Shown: positions 4,401-49,401 of the stretch, in pieces
Layout of the letters: each line of letters starts with the position of its first letter
How positions within the stretch are numbered: the stretch's first letter is position 1
Origin: Cenococcum geophilum
Taxonomy: Eukaryota
Assembly (NCBI GenBank): GCA_050273025.1
Contig: CP158635.1
Location: forward strand, 15,748,001 to 15,812,000
Direction of reading: 5' to 3'
Length of the DNA stretch: 64,000 bases
Notes under the pieces: model-generated
What the model was told of the DNA's origin: nothing
The model's input: the letters and a program-made list of their open reading frames with translations, nothing else
Database searches by the model: none
Program-made: the position numbers and the translations under genes

Positions 4401-6075
4401 GGTTGTTTAGTGTAAGTACCTAGTTAGGATAATCTTTAGGAATAGTAAATACCGCTACCTCTCCTTTTAAAATAGCCTCTTCTAAGTTATCTATATTTCC
4501 CGTCCGCTTATATTAGCGAGATAGCATAATCCTAAGGTTAATTAGTATAATTGCCTAGTTAGGATAGTCTTGGGGAGTAGCAAACGCCGCCTCCTTTACT
4601 CTTAAGATGCCCGCTTTTAAGTCATTTATATTTCCTATCCGCTTATATTAGATTCTAAGGTCACTTTTAAAGTTGCTTAACCAACCTACCTAGTTAGGAT
4701 AGTCTTTGGGAATAGCAGATACCGCTACCCCTACTCTTAAAATGGCCGCTTTTAAGTTATCTATGTTTCCTATCCGTTTATATTGGCTTTTAAGTATACT
4801 CTTAAGGTTGCTTAGCCGACCTACCCGGTTAGAATAATCTTTAGGAGTAGCAGATACTACCTCCTCTACTCTTAAAATAGCCGCTTTTAAGTCATTTATA
4901 TTTCCTATCTGCTTATATTAGCCTTTAAGCTTACTCCCAAGGTTGCTTAAATATATTGCCCGGTTAAAATAGTCTTAGGGAGTAGCAGATACCGCTTCCT
5001 CTGCTCTTAAAATGGCCGCTTCTAAGTTATCTATATTTCTTATCCGCTTATATCGGTTTTTAAGTATATTTCTAAGGTTGTTTAGCCAACCTGCCTAGTT
5101 AGGATAGTCTTTAGGAGTAGTAGACACCGCCTCCTCTACTCTTAAAATAGCCGCTTTTAAGTTATCTATATTTCCCATCCGCTTATATCGGCCTTTAAGC
5201 GTACTCCTAAGGTTGCTTAAATACATTACCCGGTTAGGATAGCCTTAGAAAGTAGCAGAAACCGCTTCCTTTGCTCTTAAAATGGCCGCTTCTAAGTTAT
5301 CTATATTTCTCATCCGCTTATATCGGTTTTTAAGTATATTCCTAAGGTTGTTTAGCCGACCTACCTAGTTAGAATAGTCTTTGGGAGTAGCAGACACCAC
5401 CTCCTCTACTCTTAAGATGGCCGCTTTTAAGTTATTTATATTTCCTATCCGTTTATATTAGCGGGATAGTATAACTCTAAGGTTGCTTAGCTACCTTACC
5501 TAGTTAGAATAGTCTTCGGAAGTAGTAGATACTGCATTCTCTGCTCTTAAGATAGCTGCTTCTAAGTCATCCATATTTCCCGTTTACTTATATTAACTTA
5601 ATAGCGTATTCCCAAAGTTGTTTAGTATACCTACGCGGTTAGAATAGTCTTTAGGTATAATAGCGAGAGCTAGCTCTACCTTAGAGATCGCTTCTGCTAT
5701 ATTATCTTTTTTTAAGGTCCGTTTAAACCAAGCTATAAGTAACTCGTTTAGGATGTATAACTTAGTTACTAAATTAAATATGTCCCTAAATAATATTATA
5801 ACTGCCTATTTTATAGCCTAAATAGCTTTATCTAGGTCCTTAGTATTTTACGTTTAGCGAAACTAAGTTATAAGTATATGCTATAAGAGATTAACTCTCT
5901 TTTTTAGTATCCTATTATCTCTAGCTATTATATCTATAGCTTGTTTTGCTCTTTAGATAGACTCTTTTAAGTACTCCATACTACTAGATTGCAAAAATTA
6001 GGTATGGTTTGCTTTTATAAGAATAAATAGCATAGCAGTATTATCTAATAATGGTACGCTAGTAGACAGATCTAT
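1438..6075 (-). pseudogene. TPR-repeat + CHAT (caspase-clan) protease A1, RIP-inactivated
   Basis: CHAT motifs in one frame: RIWWIG...SLPFHAAG, YFACYG (for HFACHG), WIAYLLACSTAEV...LVSAFQVAGFGHVIGSL(W), C-terminal (W)APYIYLGA* ending at 1438. Preceded by 135-bp/45-aa TPR repeats. Many TAA/TAG where CAA/CAG/TGG is expected. Start approximate (ATA, probably a mutated ATG). Confidence 0.9.
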
Positions 6076-8584: not shown

Positions 8585-9649
8585 ATGCCGAGTTTGCCCA
8601 CGACGTTGCTTGGCAAGCTGGCCCATTGGTTAGTTTTTTTATTCGCGAGCATCCTTGTCTAAGCCTTAATATCTTGTTCTTTGTCCCTATAATCTTAGTT
8701 AGTAATCTAAATGTTATAGGGTTACTATATTAGTTCGACCAGCAAACGGACGTGTTTATGATTAGCACCAATTATATATTATAACTACGTCTTCGACCGC
8801 ATCTAGCCGCCATCCACTACTTTGATCTTAGACAGTCTCTTTCCCTAGGATGCCGTTTAACTTAGTCGCCTAGTCCTGTGTCCTCAGGATCTAGTATAAG
8901 ACTTCTATTAGCCTGACCCTCACTCTTTCTCCGACGACGACGACGTCATTATATAACGGCTTGAGAATTTTAAGCATATCCTCGAGCAGACAAAAGGCTT
9001 ACGGCTTTATACATTCTTATCGCAGCCTCTATATATCTTATATAATGCTTAAAATGTTTCCAGGGTCGATATATCCTCAGCGGTTTGTATTAACCGTTAA
9101 CTTTAAAACTCTAGAGAAATCTTCTAAAGGGTTTGCCACTCTTCGTCGTCTCGGCGATAGCTAGAGCGGGTAATTAGAAGGAGACAGAACGTTTATCTAG
9201 TAGTTGGCATTAGGACTTTGACAGACGCGCGTATTAGCCAACGCGAGTCCCAGTTAGCGGGAGTTGAAGGAGCGATCTAGGTGCCTGTGACCTTGGCCGC
9301 CGCAGCGGGTGGAGTTGTTATACCCCTAGGAGATATTTTAGATGTTGGTGCTGGTATATCTCGGGAACGACGAATAGATGAAACGAAAGGCTTTATTGCG
9401 CCGGGAGAGCAAATATTTGCCGTGCAGTATAGGAAGGTAGAGTTAAGAAGGTTTTCAAGCCGAGACATTGATAATGCCTATCTTGAGTCTGGAAACCGTT
9501 GGAAAATCTACGCAGAAGGGAGAGGAGGGAAAGAAACCGCTGGGATTATTGTTGACGCAGAGGTCCATAAATACTTATAGAAGAGGGACCTTGAACAAGG
9601 GTACTGCGAAAGTCTTATATTTAAGGGTAAAGTATTCCTCTATCTTTAG
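8585..9649 (+). pseudogene. Fungal gasdermin-like (RCD-1/HET-Q1-type) pore-forming protein 1, RIP-inactivated
   Basis: One frame from about 8800: LFP(Q)DAV(Q)LSRLVLCPQD...RR(W)LERVIRRRQNVYLVVGIRTLTDA...FIAPGEQIFAVQYRKV. These match the LGRLV..P, W...VYLVVG and APGEQIxAVQYRKV motifs of fungal gasdermins. 5' structure uncertain (ATG at 8585, possible intron). Confidence 0.8.
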
Positions 9650-39590: not shown

Positions 39591-39860
39591 CTAGGTAATA
39601 TAAAAGTCAAATAGTATAATAAAAGAGCTGTATTTTATTTTAATAATAATAAGAACACTAGGGAAATGCAATAGAATATTAAGGAGGAATTGTTAAGAGT
39701 AGGGACTTATTAAGAGTAGGGACTTATTAAGCTATATCCGTTTAATTAGTATTATATTCCTAAGTCGTTTCTTATAATACTAGTAAAGGAATATAGTGCT
39801 AGGGAAGTGCGGGCCAATTAAAAGCCGAGAAGCTAAGGACAAAAATAAATCCTAGCGCTC

Positions 39861-39950
39861 TATTCCCCTAGGGGATTATTCCCCTAGGGCTTTATTCCCC
39901 TAGGGCTTTGTTCCCTTAGGGCTTTATTCCCCTAAGGCTTCATTCCCCCC
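39861..39950. repeat. About 16-bp tandem repeat x5 (tattcccctagggctt) ending in a C-run
   Basis: Directly visible; the core ccctaggg is palindromic. Confidence 0.8.
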
Positions 39951-40104
39951 CCTTTAGCGAGCGCTCTAGAATTTTAAATTTAGTACGCGTATCTAATCTC
40001 GCTTAGTTACCACTAGCTGTATATAGTAATTATACTAAAGCCATATACTTAGCTGCGGCTGTGAGGTTTCCACCCATATAATATTGCCAAATTTTATTAA
40101 CCTC

Positions 40105-40265
40105 TTTATAAACGTCCTGGATTATAGCTTTGACCGTACTAATGTCTGGAAAACGCCACCTTGATAAGGGTGTGGCCGGAGTGGGTTAGCCGTCCTCCCT
40201 ACTAACGGTGGCGAGCTTAAGTATCTTATACGTTAATTATCTCCTTATAAATACTACTAATTATC
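40105..40265 (+). repeat. Dispersed about 100-160-bp non-coding element (other copies about 20270-20370 +, 36920-37030 -, 45455-45545 -, 49605-49735 -)
   Basis: Core ...tctggaaaacgccaccttgataagggtgtggccg...gccgtcctccctactaacggtggcgagcttaag, or parts of it, recurs at the listed sites. Confidence 0.7.
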
Positions 40266-40550
40266 CTACCCCCAAACGATTACCGTTGCTTAATTTATAC
40301 GATAATTTGCTTTACATAGCCACTTAACCTCTTATAGATTTGCAGCGCCACTAAGTAAGTAGTTAATAACTAATAATTGTAACACTAATATATTTAGGTA
40401 GTAGTTAATAAAACTACCCTATACCTATAAATATAACTTAAACCATCCTTTTATAACAATATAGTTACCTATCTACCTACCTATATAATCTTTAACAGCG
40501 TATCCTTTTCTCTTATAACTTCGCTTCTAATAGTTCTAGTAAGTAAAGGC

Positions 40551-43500
40551 ATAGGTAATAATTAGTCATTTACGGTAGGCTATAGCCCCTACTATAAGGC
40601 CTTAATATTAGTTAACAGCATAACTAGAGGGTAAGTATTCTCTATAGGATAATTAATATTATTCTAATATACTTATTTATAGGAGGTAAGTAGACCTATA
40701 AACACTGACCTGCGAGGCTGCTGCTAATAGTATTATATTTAGTAGTATAGGACGTAAGTAAACCTGCGAATACTAACCTGCGAGGCTACTACTAATAGTA
40801 TTATATCTAGTAGTGTAAAAAGTAAGTAGACCTATAAATACTAACCTATGAGGCTGCTACTAATAGTATTATATCTGGTAGTATAGGACGTAAGTAAACC
40901 TATAAACACTAACCTATAAGGCTGCTGCTAATAGTATTATGTCTAGTAGTGTAGGACGTAAGTAAACCTATAAACACTAACCTATAAGGCTGCTGCTAAT
41001 AGTGTTATATCTAGTAGTGTAGATAGTAGGTAGACCTATAAATACTAACCTATAAGGCTGCTGCTAATAGTATTATATCTAGTAGTATAGATAGTAAGTA
41101 GACCTATAAATACTAACCTATAAGGCCGCTGCTAATAGTGTTATATCTAGTAGTATAGGAGGTAAGTAGACCTGCGAATACTAATTTACGAGGCTGCTGC
41201 TAATAGTATTATATCTAGTAGTGTAGACGGTAAGTAGACCTGTAAATACTAACTTATAAGGCTGCTGCTAATAGTGTTATATCTAGTGGTGTAGTATATA
41301 AGTAGACCTACAAACACTAACCTGCGAGGCTACTACTAATAGTGTTGTGTCTAGTAATATAGGAGGTAAGTAAACCTACAAATACTAACCTATAAGGCTA
41401 CTGCTAATGGTGTTATATCTAGTAGTATAGGACGTAAGTAGACCTGCAAATACTAACCTATAAGGCTGCTGCTAATAGTATTATATCTAGTAGTATAGCT
41501 AATAAGTAGACCTGCGAACACTAACCTACGAGGCTGCTGCTAATAGTATTATATCTAGTAGTATAGGAGGTAAGTAGACCTGTAAATACTAATCTGTAAG
41601 GCTGCTGCTAATAGTATTATATCTAGTGGTATAGACGGTAAGTAGACCTATAAACACTAACCTATAAGGCTGCTGCTAATAGTGTTATATTTAGTAGTAT
41701 AGGAGGTAAGTAGACCTGCGAATACTAACCTACGAGGCTGCTGCTAATGGTGTTGTGTCTAGTAGTGTAGATGGTAAGTAGACCTATAAATACTAACCTG
41801 CGAGGCTGCTGTTAATAATGTTATATATAGTAGTATAGGCGGTAAGTAGACCTGCAAATACTAACCTGCGAGGCTGCTATTAATAGTGTTATATTTAGTG
41901 GTGTAGGAGGTAAGTAGACCTATAAACACTAACCTACGAGGCTGTTGCTAATGGTATTGTGTCTGGTAGTGTAGGACGTAAGTAGACCTACAAATACTAA
42001 CCTACAAGGCTGCTGCTAATAGTATTATATTTAGTAGTATAGAAGGTAAGTAGACCTACGAACACTAACCTACGAGGCTGCTGTTAATAGTGTTGTGTTT
42101 AGTAATGTAGGTAGTAAGTAGACCTATAAATACTAACCTATAAGGCTGCTATTAATAGTGTTATATTTAGTGGTATAGATAGTAAGTAGACCTATAAATA
42201 CTTACCTATGAGGCTACTACTAATAGTATTATATCTAGTGGTGTAGGACATAAGTAGACCTATAAATACTAACCTATAAAGCTGCTGTTAATGGTGTTAT
42301 ATTTAGTAGTATAGAAGGTAAGTAGACCTGCAAACACTGACCTATAAGGCTGCTGTTAATAGTATTATATCTAGTAGTATAGGTAGTAAGTAGACCTGTA
42401 AATACTAACCTATAAGGCTGCTGCTAATAGTGTTGTATTTAGTGGTGTAGATGGTAAGTAGACCTATAAATACTAACCTACGAGGCTGCTGCTAATAGTG
42501 TTGTATTTAGTGGTGTAGGACGTAAGTAGACCCGCGAATACTAACCTACGAGGCTGCTGCTAATAGTATTATGTCTAGTAGTATAGGACGTAAGTAGACC
42601 TGCAAATACTAACCTACGAGGCTACTGCTAATAGTATTATATCTAGTAGTATAGGACGTAAGTAGACCTACAAACACTGACCTGCGAGGCTGCTACTAAT
42701 AGTATTATGTCTAGTGGTGTAGTTTATAAGTAGACCTACAAATACTAACCTACGAGGCTGCTGCTAATGGTATTATGTCTAGTGGTATAGCCGGTAAGTA
42801 GACCTGTAAATACTGACCTACGAGGCTGCTGCTAATGGTATTATATCTAGTAGCGTAGTATATAAGTAGACCTACAAACACTGACCTACGAGGCTGCTGC
42901 TAATAGTGTTATGTCTGGTAGTATAGGATGTAAGTAGACCTGTAAACACTAACCTGCGAGGCTACTGCTAATGGTGTTGTGTCTGGTGGTGTAGGACGTA
43001 AGTAGACCTGCGAATACTGACCTGCGAGGCTGCTGCTAATAGTGTTATGTTTGGTAGTATAGCCGGTAAGTAGACCTATGAACACTGACCTGCGAGGCTG
43101 CTGCTAATAGTGTTGTGTTTGGTGGTATAGGACGTAAGTAGACCTGCGAGCACTGACCTGCGAGGCTGCTGCTAATGGTGTTGTGTCTGGCGATGTAGCG
43201 GGTAAGTGTACCGCGGATTGCTCCTATATGTGACCGCTAGAACTAATAACAATTTGGAAGTAGTACAATGATTGGTATCTCGATTTCAACGATTCCTTTG
43301 CAAGAGGCTTCTACGCAGATTTTCCATCGCGTGCGCTACCTGCCACAGTGCACTGTTGTCCCTGCTGCAGCACCTTTCTAGATAATGCTATTGGGGGTGC
43401 TGCTTATAAGGCTAGCCTTTCCGATCTATGTACTTCTGCGGAAAGCTGTTCGGTCTGCGGAATGCTTCTCCGAGCATTTAAGCACTGCCGCAATGATAAT

Positions 43501-45223
43501 AACGGAAATATCGTCGTAGAGCGAATAAGCTCGGCACTTAGGGCAGGAATAGGAGGCCCGCGCCTTTTGCGGTTTTGTATGGATCCAGGTTAGTGTGTAT
43601 AACTCCTCTTATGCATTGGACAGAAACAATACTAATTGCATATCTTTGCTATAGAATACGCTGTTTACACTAATTATAACACCCTAATCGGCCTCCCAAT
43701 TCAACCTGAACCTGATAACTATGTATGATTTGCACTGCTTTGCGCATGGCTTCGTTGGTGCGATAAGTCCCACGACTGTAATAAGCACCAAGGTGAATCG
43801 AAGATAGCATTGCCAACAAGAGTCCTCTACGTTGGTGATCTAAACGATTTGGGTTATAGTTCAGATTTTATATGTCTGGTTTGTGCCTTGGAAACAAACA
43901 GGTAGGAATACATCGCATTATCTCACTGCTGGGGCAACCTCTCAGTCGAAAAGAAGAAAGGGTACTGCATAACACAGGACAATATTAGCCAACGGCTGGA
44001 AGGATTTAGTCTCTCTGAACTACCGAAGACTTTCCAAGACGCTGTTAAAGTGACCCGAGAACTTGGCGTCCCATACCTCTGGATCGACTCTCTCTGCATC
44101 ATCCAATACGAGGACAATGATGAGGACTGGAAACGCGAATCTGTCCAAATGGAAGCCGTCTTTTCGGCAGCTTATTGTACAATCGCTGTAACTGCGGCTG
44201 TCGACTCTAACGCAGGGTTCTTAGAGCGGGACGTAAACCCTAAGTCTGTCTATGTTCAAGATACCTTAGGCAAGCAGTTCTATATCAGCGCCGATATAGA
44301 TGATTTTGACAGCGATGTGGCCAAGGCTTAGCTCAATATGCGAGCATGGGTAATGCAAGAAGGGGTTTTAGCGCGACGGACTATCCACTTCAGCGCCAAT
44401 CAGATATACTGGGAGTGTGGGAAAGGGGTTTACTGCGAAAACCTTACTAGGCTGGAAAGGTACGAGCTCTACAAGACCTAAATTAAAACGCTCCTAACTA
44501 GACATCTTTCTCATCAGCAAATTTGAGAAAAAGCACTTTACGCTCGATCCAAACTTCCTAAGTTGGCTTATTGGATTAGGCAGGGAGCGTACCACGAGGT
44601 TCATTTACTTTCTCTTTGAAGACTACTCGAAGCGGGACCTTACAGTCGAAACCGACAGATATGTTGTAATATCTGGGTTACAGAATCGTATTGCAGGCGC
44701 TTTAGGATGTTAAAGCAGATACGGTGTCTTCTAGAAGTCCCTTTACAGGAATCTCCTCTGGCGGCCGTCTGATAATAAAATAAAGAAGATTCTATACAAA
44801 ACCTAGCATATGCCATTGTGGTCATGGATGGCATATAGTGGAGGCATTCAGTTTATAAAAATCCCTTACAGCAAAGTTGACTGGATTAATAACCTCCGGT
44901 TTAATAAAGAGCGTAAATAGGCACTAGTTACCAACCTAGGAGGTTTCAGGTACTGTATGATGGAACCGGATGGGAAACAGTATGCTATCTTGGATTTTAG
45001 TGGAACGAATAGAGGCTGGGTATAGTACGATGTTGAGGACGGCGAAGATATTTGTAAAGAATAATGTGTTGTTGTAAAAAGGACGAGGAATAGTAATGTT
45101 GAGAAGTACTATGTACTAGTTATCAGGCTGACCAGTATGGATGGTAAGTATGGGAGGGTTGGAGTTGGGCTGATTCAGAGTGGCTGTGTACTGAGATAAG
45201 AAACTAACGTGCGAGTAGTGTGA
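40551..45223 (+). pseudogene. HET-domain (PF06985-type, tol/het-6-like) gene whose 5' part is built from single-codon micro-exons
   Basis: Exon from 43264 (YNDWYLDF...CPCC...CSVCGML), introns 43589-43654 and about 44460-44517, HET motifs LPTRVL, YIALSHCWG, LPKTFQDAVKVTRELGVPYLWIDSLCIIQ, DWKRES..M..VFSAAYCTIA, RAWVMQE; stop at 45221-45223; several premature stops. Start uncertain (ATA at 40551 or 40530). Confidence 0.85.
40686..43201 (+). repeat. 37 x 68-bp tandem array; each unit is a 65-nt intron-like sequence plus a variable 3-nt micro-exon
   Basis: Consensus GTAAGTAGACCTGCGAACACTGACCTGCGAGGCTGCTGCTAATGGTGTTGTGTCTGGTGGTGTAG + NNN; exact 68-bp period from 40686 to 43134; non-transition variation is almost confined to the NNN. 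Confidence 0.93.
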
Positions 45224-45789
45224 ACGAAGTTGCGCTAGAACATCTGGAGGAGTGGCGGATGCACACATAGACTTAATGTCGATTTCTAGCATAGTCTGCG
45301 TATACTCTTCGTCTACTTATATGACGTTTGACAGTGAAAGATCTCACCATAAAGACAGCTGGATTAAATGAATCTAAGCAGGTTTGCTAAATGCTTGGGC
45401 GCGGGGGCGACCATTTATCGACCCTTATCCACTCCCTATACGAAACGGATTTAGTGGCAAGATAATTAGTGGTATTTAAAAGTAGACAATTGACGCATAA
45501 GATACTTAAGCTCGCCACCGCTAGCAGGGAGGACGGCCGGAGCGGGTCGGCCACCCTCCCTACTAGCGCAACGAAGGGGCAAGAACTTTGCCACGTATCG
45601 TCGCCCTTAACATTTTCTGGAAACATCTAAAATCCTAGCAGCTAATTTAACTACGATAGGCCTAATAGAAACTGCTAGGAGAGATATATACTATAAATAT
45701 ATATTGCCCTCCAGAACCTTTTATAGAATAGTGAGTTTAGAAAGGTATAAATCGTCCTATTGCTAGCTTCTTAAGAACTATACTAGCGC

Positions 45790-48700
45790 TAACTACATCT
45801 TACCTTATTAAGACGGAGTTAAAGAAATGTTATCCTACCTAATGAATGCCCTATATAGATTAAGTCTCTATTAACGGCGGTGCAGTTTGGTCAATATTTA
45901 GGGGGAAGCCAAAGGATAGCCTTCTTATTAGAACTTATTCACTCATTTTCAACAAATATAGCAGTTAGCTCTTTTTCCTAAGAAAGGAATGTCCTTAAAC
46001 AAGACTAAGGAAGAAGGATATCTCCTCTATCTGTCTTTAGATACCGGCTATTAGGCGAAAAGGCTACAGTAAGGACTAAGTTAGAATGATCCTTGAGGGT
46101 ATTGCGGCAAGACCCTATCACTACATTCCAGAACCGTATAGTGTCGTCTTTAGATGCCGACGCTATTAGCTAGCCATCTGGAGAGAAAGCTACAGCCCTA
46201 ACCCAGTCAGAATGGCCCTTAAGGGTGCCGCGGCAAGACCCCGTCACTACCTCCCACAGCCGTATATTGTAATCGTAGGATGCCGATACTACTAGCTGAC
46301 TATCTGGCGCAAACGCTATAGTAAGGACCGAGTTAGAATGGCCCTTAAGGGTGCTGCGGTAAGACCCTGTCGCTGCGTCCCAGAGCCGTACAGTGTGGTC
46401 TCCGGATGCCGACGCTATCAGCTGGCCATCCGGCGAGAAGGCTACGGCGTTAATGGGGCTGGAATGGCCCTCGAGCGTGTTACGGCAGGATCCTGTTGCT
46501 ACCTCCCAGAGCCGTACAGTGTGGTCGTTAGATGCCGACGCTAACAGCTGGCCATCTAGAGAGAAGGCTACAGTAAGGACCGAGTTAGAATGGCCCTCGA
46601 GCGTACTACTGCAGGACCCTGTTGCTGTCTCCCATAGCTATATAGTGTGGTCATTAGATGCCGACGCTACTAGCTGGCCATCTAGGGAGAAGGCTACAGC
46701 AAGGACCCAGTCGGAATGGCCCTTGAGCGTACTATGGCAGGACCCTGTCACTGCCTCCCAGATCCATACAGTGTGGTCGTCAGATACCGACGCTACTAGC
46801 TGACCATCCGGCGAGAAGGCTACAGCCCTAACCCAATCGGAATGGCCCTTAAGTGTACTGCGGCAAGCGTCCCAATTATCTTCGCCCTTTAATAGCCTAC
46901 TAATCCACCCCGGAATATGGTTGGTAAATACCTTCCGTATTATACTTATTTCTAGGGCGAAAATAAGGGCTGAAGAATAAACCTATAGAGGTGCATCTTC
47001 TAATATGGGTTGGAACCGCCGAATAAATTGCTTCGTATTATAAAGAAATCTTAAGCTAGCACTTTTATTAGACTGTGTTATAAGTAAGCATAGTAAGTAT
47101 AATAGAATGCGTAAGCCGTCTTACTTCTATAAGCGCTTATAGGCTATTAACTATAGGAATGCATTTATATGTTTCTCTAATAAGGCTTATGGCTTCTAGC
47201 TAGTAAAGGAAATACTTATAGAGGAAAAGGTAGATTAAGTCCCCGTTGTGGATATAGCGTTTTCTCTACTTTAGATGGTGCACCTAATAACAGCAAGTAT
47301 ACTATAACTTAGGTGGTAGACCGCGAGCAACTATTTGTTTATTAATCTTGCTTCTCAAAATCCCGGGTACGGCAAGGTTGCATATATTCTGCCGTAGGCC
47401 TTTTAGGCTAGATATTAGTTCAAGGCACTAAGATACTAGCCGGTTATGTATATCCTTCTCATCTATCCAGAATGGGTTCTTTCCCTGCTTTTAAAGATCG
47501 ATAAGAAACTCGCGGAAGGACAGATACAGGAGCCTTACGGGTACATCCTCTCTATAAGGAATGCTGAGAACAGAATATAGAGAGTCTAGCTAGCACCTAA
47601 TCTGCTATTAGGGAATTTGAAGAAGGTGTGCAAGTAAGGTAATAGAGAGAGGACTCCCTAAAACGATAATACTTCCAACTAGTTCTTGGAATCCGCGAAG
47701 CCATACTTCCTTGTCTTCCTCCTCCTAGTTAGCAAGTAGCTGGTTTAGGATAGGGAGATAAGTCCGCTCGAGCTGCGAGAATGTTAATCTACGGTACTGC
47801 AGAACATTTTTCAAATAACCTTCAGGATCGCTCCCTTTAGATCCAATGTACCGACAGACTATGGCAGCGAAGATAAACAATGGGACACTCAGCTCCACCA
47901 GGGCCTGGATTTGGTCTCTACTAGGCCAGTTTGGGGACAGTAAGCGCTACTGTCGTATTTCTCCGAGTTTATGCTCTAAGAAGAGGCGTATGTCATGTTT
48001 AATCGTTTGCTTCGCGACCTTATCCAGGATTAGGTCTTAGTATATGCCATCACGCATTTGTCTAAAACTAAGGCGAATGTGTAGCTTTAGTCTGCTTGTT
48101 ACAAAGACCTATAGCGACACTAGCTTAAGGCCCCTAGTTCGTAAAAGAAGCTTAAGAATTACTCATACATCTTTATCTAGCTCGCACTTATCTAGCGCGT
48201 CTATTACGACAACTAGATCTAAAGCTTAAAGAGGTACTGCTTCTAAAAGCGGCTAAAAGATTAGCTTCTCAAACTGGTCTTCTAGAGCCTTCTCGGAGAT
48301 AGCTGGATCCGCATTAATTACTTTCCTAACGCCTAATCTCATTCCTAGTACATAACCTATTAGATCTATAACAATAGTAGTAAAGAATCGTATGGCATTG
48401 CCACATTCTCCCTCGCCCCTCCTAAAGAAAAAGCTGGCTCCTAATTAACATTAGTTGGAGAATAACTGGGAAACAGTACGTGTAATTATAGACTTTCCCA
48501 TACCTGCTATACCATTTAGCCAGAATATAGGTTTGCTGCTTTTATCCCTTGCCCATTCTCTTATTCAATACAGCAACTCAGTTCGCGTGTTTAGAAGGCA
48601 TCTTGTATTATATTCCTCCATATACGAGTTAAAAGACGCTCCTTTTGCGATCAGTAGGTCAATTAAGTTATTATCCTTAATCTCTTTCCGGAGTCGATTT

Positions 48701-49401
48701 AGTGCCTTCTACCTCCCTTCGCCATAGATAAGCGGCATATAGATATTGAAAATGCCTAGTAGAGAGTATGCTGCGTCTTCTTCTCGCTTTATCTGGCGTT
48801 TGTCTGCCTAAGATATACGCTCGTTTATACTAAAATAAGATAAGGGGATTCCTTAAAGAGCTTAGATAGCGATTCCTGTTATTTCGTAGAGAGTCTGTTC
48901 TAGTAATTGCTTATTACTAAGCTATATTCCCTCCTTAGAGAAGAATTCAACTAATGCCGGAGCAATAAGTTCTTAAAGCGTCCAGCCACAGGTAAACTAT
49001 CTGCTTCTCTTAAATACCGGTTTCCATCTTTAAGAGAACCCGTCATCTTTAGCTAAATTACTAACTAAAACATCCGACAAATATACGTAGCATCTAGTCG
49101 CAGCCTAATACTAGTAGAATATAGAGTTAATCGCTTCTAAAAGCTCTGCGCTGCTTAATTTATTAATATAGCAGGTGTCAACCCAGAAGAACTGCAGGCC
49201 GTTACTAGCAGCTTGCTTCCTATAGAAGCGGATGTTGCTGTAACCAGGTTTGCTCTTACCTGTACCGTCTACTAAGTCTTTAAATGTAACCTCTTTGTGA
49301 TCTGCTCCCTAGGTATGCGAAAGAATAGTAAAGCGCGGAATGTTGCTAATAAATTCAAGCAGGCCGAATTCGCCGTTATCTTTAAGCTGTAAAAGACGCA
49401 T
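45790..49401 (-). pseudogene. HET-NACHT-WD40 NLR (HNWD / het-e-like), RIP-inactivated
   Basis: MRLLQLKDNGEF...ILSHT(W)GADHKEVTFKD...FFWVDTCYINK (HET); FWLNGIAGMGKSII (NACHT P-loop), LVVVIDALDKCE (Walker B), PLFIFAAIVCRYI; then 126-bp WD40 repeats. Confidence 0.92.
46050..46870 (-). repeat. 126-bp WD40 repeats (6 full plus 1 partial) with high internal conservation
   Basis: Anchor gatRccga at 46153, 46279, 46405, 46531, 46657, 46783; unit TLEGHSxxVxAVAFSPDGQLVASASxDHTVxLWE. Confidence 0.9.

Follow-up and report, generated by a model that had tools for sequence, protein, structure and literature searches.

Can a tandem array that looks like a minisatellite be the 5' coding part of a gene? The question is raised by a locus of Cenococcum geophilum (assembly GCA_050273025.1, contig CP158635.1, positions 15,748,001 to 15,812,000, forward strand). 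This stretch of 64,000 nucleotides (nt) is called the window here, and coordinates are positions within it. On the plus strand at 40686-43201, upstream of a gene of a HET-domain family, lie 37 copies of a 65-nt intron-like sequence, each followed by three nucleotides. An earlier note, made from the sequence of the window, had read every triplet as a one-codon exon and the whole array as part of the HET gene. From our comparison with related arrays, we consider it probable that the array is a copy, inactivated by repeat-induced point mutation (RIP), of a 5' coding module of one HET-domain gene family, the module being a run of one-codon exons.

Structure of the array in the window

Tandem Repeats Finder reported an array at 40678-43182 with a period of 68 and 36.8 copies (matches 84%, indels 0%). 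Division from 40686 into blocks of exactly 68 nt gave 37 units, the last of which ends at 43201, and the triplets listed in the earlier note were reproduced exactly. The donors of the 37 units are GTAAGT (31), ATAAGT (5) and GTAGGT (1), and the acceptors are TAG (36) and TAA (1). The two parts of the unit differ in their variation, as the earlier note had described: transversions were found in 36 of the 111 cells of the three spacer columns, but in only 2 of the 2405 cells of the 65 intron columns, whose variation otherwise consists of transitions. The block GAC AAG GTA ATR occurs twice among the triplets, which indicates that units duplicate in groups.

The transitions have the signature of RIP. 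Changed sites amounted to 62% at CpA, 59% at TpG and about 50% at CpG, versus 3-8% in other contexts. With a TpA/ApT index of 2.38 and a (CpA+TpG)/(ApC+GpT) index of 0.50, the array has the properties of RIP-mutated DNA. The window as a whole is AT-rich, with a GC content of 31-52%. A unit was counted as splice-competent when it had a GTRAGT donor, CTRAY at 15-30 nt from its end and a YAG acceptor that was the first AG past the branch site; by this definition only 2 of the 37 units are competent, mostly because RIP turned TGG into TAG.

All 37 matches to the unit lie inside the array, and none was found elsewhere in the 64-kb window. The array is real and far beyond chance. A plain non-coding minisatellite does not fit, since over the set of arrays described below three hypervariable columns stand against 65 constrained ones, stop triplets are scarcer than expected and splice signals persist.

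Related arrays in metagenomes

A metagenome collection was scanned with a pattern, two unit cores at a distance of about 68 nt, which matched 32 of the 36 neighbouring pairs of units in the window and nothing in shuffled sequences. The scan gave 14 loci. Twelve of these are true arrays, 11 of them distinct (L007 and L010 are the same); L006 and L011 were rejected as unrelated GCT-rich repeats. Counts of units and triplets rest on a parse of the junctions, by which the 11 other distinct arrays have from 3 to at least 58 units (the latter in L009).

The modal intron is 65 nt long in all 12 arrays, the window included, and the junction YAG-N3-GTRAGT was found in all 12 sets. The only other spacings counted were of 0, 5, 6 or 8 nt; those of 0 and 8 stem from CAG or TAG triplets or from an extra upstream TAG, and those of 5 and 6 are single matches. 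The 3-nt spacer is thus invariant; spacers not divisible by 3 at random frequency had been named in the earlier note as evidence against one-codon exons. Intron-length variants of 61-69 nt keep the 3-nt spacer, although they are too few for a test alone.

Units are uniform inside each locus and different between loci. The core that they share consists of the donor, a CTGCGA block, GGCTGCTGCTAAT with the branch site, and TGGTGGTGTAG. In all ten arrays with at least 4 units, transversion diversity was higher in the spacers (0.22-0.52) than in the intron columns (0-0.075), a difference of 5- to more than 250-fold. In all nine loci that have downstream DNA, the array is succeeded by one and the same HET family, each time as a distinct last intron and then an exon of the YN.W..FDN.FA type, hereafter the YNDW exon; the remaining three array contigs end within or just past the array.

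The earlier note had proposed a search for copies free of RIP, and unmutated arrays with the same layout were indeed found. Splice-competent units number 21 of 21 in L002, 5 of 5 in L004, 5 of 6 in L008 and 13 of 18 in L014. L014 is intact: its 5' architecture is complete, it has 20 units, and its HET frame is unbroken, with stops inside introns only. Dinucleotide RIP indices at these other loci are confounded by the composition of the unit, and GC content and erosion of splice signals were used instead. Among the arrays of more than 20 units, those of the window, L003 and L009 are RIP-mutated, L002 is not and L005 is undecided, so there is no clean rule on whether expansion attracts RIP.

In L009, read in the orientation of the array, the last intron and the start of the HET exon are present twice, in mid-array at 8824-8997 and from 10015 onward, which indicates that a segment of the array was duplicated in tandem together with the exon start.

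The triplets as candidate codons

Stop codons are rare among the triplets. The six unmutated arrays have none in 82 triplets (3.3 expected from column shuffles, P about 0.02). Over all arrays there are 5 in 236 (16.5 expected, P about 1e-4); all five are TAG and all are in RIP-mutated arrays. Two of the three arrays with TAG triplets also have CAG, which is one RIP step away. The codon counts show the same depletion within codon families: TAT occurs 15 times, TAC 3 times and TAA never, and TGT 8 times, TGG 3 times and TGA never. When the 236 codons are pooled, Glu (42), Asp (38), Arg (26), Leu (21) and Tyr (18) are the most frequent residues.

The 5' end common to the loci also contains single codons outside the array. 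It is composed of an ATG exon, intron A, a one-codon exon, intron B and a second one-codon exon. The ATG exon is of two types, MEKKWSFT-like or M.QETW.D.LF.-like. Introns A and B diverge between loci, and the single codons that flank them stay, as do the splice signals. Immediately 5' of the array, nine of the ten loci that retain their 5' edge have GAA or GAG; L009, which is RIP-mutated, has AAA. In L002, which is without intron B, the two codons are contiguous as ACG GAA, and both triplets must therefore be exon. Both exon 1 and the YNDW exon are in phase 0. A retained unit brings a frame-0 stop, TAA or TGA, at the branch site in the consensus units of the window, L002 and L014.

The HET gene of the window and its neighbourhood

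The same architecture can be followed in the window on the plus strand. A remnant of exon 1 of eight codons at 40552-40575 was aligned with L005, L007, L013 and L014 and is homologous to the MEKKWSFT-type exon ATG..TGG TCA TTT ACG; it now reads ATA ... TAG TCA TTT ACG, so that the start codon has become ATA and the Trp codon TAG. Intron A (40576-40627, 52 nt) is unrelated to the array unit, its donor and acceptor were aligned in five loci, and an intron occupies the same place in loci with the second type of ATG exon. The one-codon exon a is AGG at 40628-40630 (elsewhere AAG, AAC, AAA or AGG). Intron B (40631-40682, 52 nt), also unrelated to the unit, is followed by the one-codon exon b, GAG, at 40683-40685. 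Downstream of the array, the last intron at 43202-43263 (62 nt) is not an array unit, although its first 16 nt or so are unit-like; its position is kept in homologous loci, and a tblastn alignment with the protein P0001 extends into it. The unrelated introns that the earlier note had placed on both sides of the array are thus where it put them.

The first large exon, the YNDW exon at 43264-43588, is Cys-rich, precedes the HET domain and has an open frame. It is joined through a phase-1 intron of 66 nt (43589-43654, GTTAGT ... ACTAAT ... TAG), which falls at the same gap in tblastn alignments of homologues, to degraded HET-domain exons at 43655-45220. The Pfam HET domain (PF06985) was matched at 43906-44328 with E=6.8e-26 and 91.8 bits against a gathering cut-off of 22.5. 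The proposal that the exon from 43264 continues in frame into the HET region was right as to frame, but the HET frame itself has in-frame stops, at 43726-43728, 43903-43905, 44329-44331 and others downstream. DNA from a second source (X5) is identical to the window over 43135-44446, stops included. The copy in the window is a RIP-inactivated pseudogene.

A full HMMER scan found 42 proteins homologous to the YNDW exon at E<=1e-3. Word-index protein searches found no match, either with this exon or with a minus-strand open reading frame (ORF) that runs through the units. The named homologues are HET-domain proteins of Boeremia exigua, Plenodomus tracheiphilus and Lentithecium fluviatile, so that, judged by sequence similarity, the closest named relatives of the array-bearing family are in the Pleosporales (Dothideomycetes). 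Many short ORF-type matches start with ..IQ|YNDW, in which an acceptor has been translated, and the intron directly 5' of the YNDW exon is therefore conserved. The N-terminal extensions of about 140 residues of the homologues P0009 and P0019 had no counterpart in the window by tblastn.

Residues 1-19 of one relative, P0004 (Lentithecium fluviatile KAF2681922.1), are a translated array-like unit and matched many units of the window by tblastn. The model of P0004 begins inside this array-like intron unit and is without the YNDW..FDN.F residues; it is probably wrong at its 5' end.

A second gene of the cell-death type lies on the minus strand at 46054-49308, convergent to the HET pseudogene. Its WD40 repeats (Pfam WD40, E=1.6e-47) come from a 126-bp tandem array of 6.5 copies with 77% matches; it also has a HET-like piece at 49111-49308 and broken ORFs in between. 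It looks like a partly degraded HET/NACHT/WD40 gene of the NOD-like receptor (NLR) type with highly conserved repeats. On the other side, the AT-rich DNA upstream of the HET gene contains a 16-bp tandem repeat of 6.1 copies at 39851-39948 and a perfect 17-bp repeat at 39693-39731.

RNA from the locus

Reads and contigs were aligned over 43134-45300. Words of this segment were present in RNA metatranscriptome contigs at 56-68%. RNA contigs of runs X6 and X7, 100% identical to the window, form a spliced transcript over the HET pseudogene at 43661-45300. Its introns, at 44388-44447 and 44498-44592, have CT..AC ends on the plus strand; they are thus introns of the minus strand, and the RNA is antisense to the HET gene. 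This transcript may be the 3' part of that of the neighbouring minus-strand gene. Run X21 contained only reads that are 90-95% alike, from paralogues.

An 85-nt RNA contig of run X7 shares 40 nt of a unit with the window at 43134-43173, with 4 differences, and continues as a unit of the L002 type. It is an unspliced unit of a paralogue, from pre-mRNA or from DNA carried over, and proves nothing.

P0044 is an ORF of 614 amino acids on a contig of 2060 nt from which both downstream introns are gone. The ORF starts with the residues MPW, which stand immediately before YNDW and correspond neither to a read-through acceptor nor to the end of either type of exon 1. P0044 gives a weak hint that codons of upstream exons may be present in mRNA.

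Discussion

The structure proposed here, in which phase-0 one-codon exons continue in frame into a HET gene, finds good support when the arrays are compared, because the 3-nt spacer is invariant, the triplets are hypervariable, stops are depleted, the one-codon exons before the array are conserved, intron B is present or absent between them, and L014 is intact. In an intact gene, a short ATG exon would be followed by two unrelated introns flanking one-codon exons, by introns of about 65 nt each with a phase-0 codon behind it, by a distinct last intron and by the Cys-rich exon that continues to the HET domain. Each unit would behave as an ordinary small fungal intron recognized by intron definition, with a GTAAGT donor, CTRAY some 22 nt before the 3' end and YAG. 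Since each donor lies 3 nt past the previous acceptor, neighbouring introns could hardly be recognized simultaneously and would have to be removed one after another. According to passages of PMC8469720, sequential splicing at overlapping sites is established for spliceosomal twin introns (stwintrons) in these fungi. The codons left over would spell an acidic, charged and aromatic-rich peptide of variable length near the N-terminus, probably disordered and placed after the short N-terminal exon and ahead of the Cys-rich region. With exons of 3 nt throughout, the frame would be kept when exons are skipped, when any donor is paired with any later acceptor, and when units are gained or lost by unequal crossover. 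We infer that the micro-exons are included in mRNA by sequential splicing, that skipping varies the peptide and that the peptide has a role in recognition.

Several observations weigh against this reading of the array as a run of coding exons. The alignment over 43134-45300 gave the spliced antisense RNA and no sense RNA: none was found over 43207-43644, and RNA begins only at 43661. No cDNA or read was found that shows a micro-exon in mRNA. In its structure, the claim that one-codon exons lead into the HET gene is backed by 11 other distinct arrays; no RNA that shows either inclusion or skipping was found. The MPW of P0044 may belong to the end of an ordinary exon. The absence of stops from the 37 triplets of the window, which the earlier note had pointed out, is true but insignificant alone (P about 0.34 from column frequencies), and the P values for stop depletion in the whole set overstate independence, as triplets within an array copy each other. 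The annotated relatives P0004 and P0012 are without such exons, and P0005 and P0028 begin directly at M-YN.W with no array; the start is M or MDH across P0005, P0028 and P0012. It seems that one sub-lineage acquired the micro-exon module as an addition. Exon a of L014 and the donor behind it lie at 5819-5827 in the orientation of the array, and this donor is GCACGT instead of the GTAGGT of L005 and L013; this exon may be skipped there, or lost through fusion of the two introns, and the frame would still be kept. Finally, one-codon exons leave unexplained why the introns within an array are homogeneous beside diverse triplets and why the intron core is conserved across paralogues.

If the triplets are not codons, the array may be a non-coding minisatellite within one long 5' intron that is always removed whole. 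The triplets would then never enter mRNA, and the 3-nt spacing would only make stray internal splicing harmless. Exon 1 and the YNDW exon, both in phase 0, could be joined directly in frame, and this explanation agrees with the lack of RNA evidence for inclusion and with gene models of relatives that are without the codons. However, it needs introns of 1.5-4 kb beside neighbours of 50-66 nt, and it does not explain the excess of transversions in the spacers of all ten arrays, the depletion of stops, the Glu codon before the array or the contiguous ACG GAA of L002. The start of P0044, too, is neither type of exon 1 joined to YNDW. We regard a single long intron as unlikely. Another idea is that the codons are included but their content is minor, the array serving to throttle or delay a dangerous cell-death protein through dozens of introns. 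The in-frame stop of a retained unit, an intron length fixed at 65 nt (3n+2) in all 12 arrays and an intron core conserved beyond the splice signals would suit such a gate. The hypervariable triplets are not needed for it, and it is compatible with coding exons; as the whole explanation it is improbable.

The array could also have no function, as a tandem introner-like element whose selfish or neutral expansion is tolerated through its frame-keeping spacing. Units that are near-identical inside arrays and different between them, duplication of several units at once and the many dead copies are what such expansion would leave. Nevertheless, the unit was found only upstream of one HET family, in all nine loci with downstream DNA, and at no other place in the 64-kb window, paralogues whose units have diverged have retained the architecture, and the pattern of the triplets requires selection. 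Expansion without function is, in our estimation, very unlikely. The same can be said, more strongly, of the idea that the intron is the product, each 65-nt intron giving a small functional RNA as in host genes of small nucleolar RNAs, with the exons as spacers. Conserved introns with variable exons do occur in host genes such as SNHG14. Nevertheless, Rfam gave no match, either at gathering thresholds for L002 and L014 or at E<=1 for 40000-43600 of the window; the units fold no better than shuffled sequences (z from -0.9 to +1.3); the splice signals leave just 45 nt or so; and the stop depletion and coding context would be left without explanation. That the introns are the product is therefore scarcely credible. 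Intron B of the window gave a folding z of -2.8, but it is AT-rich, RIP-mutated sequence and we give this value no interpretation.

One-codon exons thus remain the reading that we prefer, and they can be compared with known systems. Micro-exon genes of Schistosoma also have runs of symmetric micro-exons, the skipping of which keeps the frame and varies the protein. Unlike here, their exons are of 6-36 nt, their introns are unrelated and long, and their products are secreted parasite proteins.

A closer parallel is found in a fungus. According to passages of PMC4986451, PMC3689799, PMC13449251 and PMC10197012, the nank (NACHT-ANK) genes of Tuber melanosporum have tens of alternatively spliced microexons the size of a codon (Iotti et al. 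2012). In these passages the splicing is reported as experimentally shown, and protein diversification by alternative splicing is proposed. As far as these passages describe them, the nank genes resemble the HET genes in having tens of consecutive 3-nt exons in a fungal family of nonself recognition or cell death. They differ in domains (NACHT-ANK there, HET only here), in fungal class, in the place of the variation (sensor domains in PMC10197012, the N-terminus before the HET domain here) and in the kind of evidence, splicing being reported from experiment there and the array being known from DNA sequence here. With many consecutive 3-nt candidate exons, each between a canonical donor and acceptor, in frame and stop-free in live copies, the array agrees with a codon-sized microexon array. 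Membership in the nank family itself was rejected, since there is no NACHT or ANK domain: the gene of the window, P0044, P0012 and P0009 gave PF06985 alone. The earlier note had taken the architecture to be unknown, which does not hold in view of the Tuber genes. The HET array is of a kind already reported once in fungi, in another gene family and another class. Our literature search found no published description of this micro-exon architecture in a HET gene.

The array also shares features with two other kinds of repeat. Repeats of high internal conservation (HIC) in fungal NLR genes (WD40, ANK, TPR), as described in passages of PMC13449251 and PMC10197012, are likewise near-identical tandem DNA units in cell-death or immune genes, for which diversity by reshuffling has been proposed. 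In HIC repeats the whole unit is coding, whereas the unit here is about 96% intron with one codon. The window has an example of the HIC type on the minus strand at 46054-46867. Introner-like elements of Dothideomycetes and sister (stw)introns of Hypoxylaceae are, in passages of PMC4457414 and PMC8469720, families of near-identical spliceosomal introns that multiply in fungal genomes. Those are dispersed in unrelated genes, whereas the introns here are in tandem in one gene family. The units were not classed as introner-like elements, since all matches in the window are in the array and the arrays of all nine loci with downstream DNA precede the same HET family.

By analogy with the proposal made for Tuber, it is plausible that the exons serve to diversify the peptide. 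A further idea is more doubtful, and we put it forward tentatively. Concerted evolution may keep the introns interchangeable, so that a very large set of N-terminal isoforms, any ordered subset of 20-58 codons, could arise from one HET gene at the resolution of single residues, with heritable gain and loss of units in addition. Expansion would make the array a tandem repeat of several kilobases open to recognition by RIP, and long arrays would tend to kill their own gene, in a cycle of birth and death; the mechanism of the Tuber type would be extended from NLR sensor genes to HET genes in a second fungal class. That expansion of the array itself attracts RIP would be a part of this idea.

In conclusion, comparison of the loci indicates that the gene structure is real, conserved and very unusual. 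Gene finders miss such micro-exons entirely, and the N-termini of the HET family in fungal annotations are therefore likely wrong, as in P0004. The set of arrays compared here is a natural experiment that places the spliceosome before 3-nt exons between near-identical introns, and it bears on how introns are homogenized beside diverse codons and on how tandem repeats within genes fare against RIP. If the codons are spliced in, few longer runs of minimal exons would be known than those of 37 in the window and of at least 58 in L009, and the HET family would be a second, independent fungal lineage and gene family with the mechanism of codon-sized microexons.

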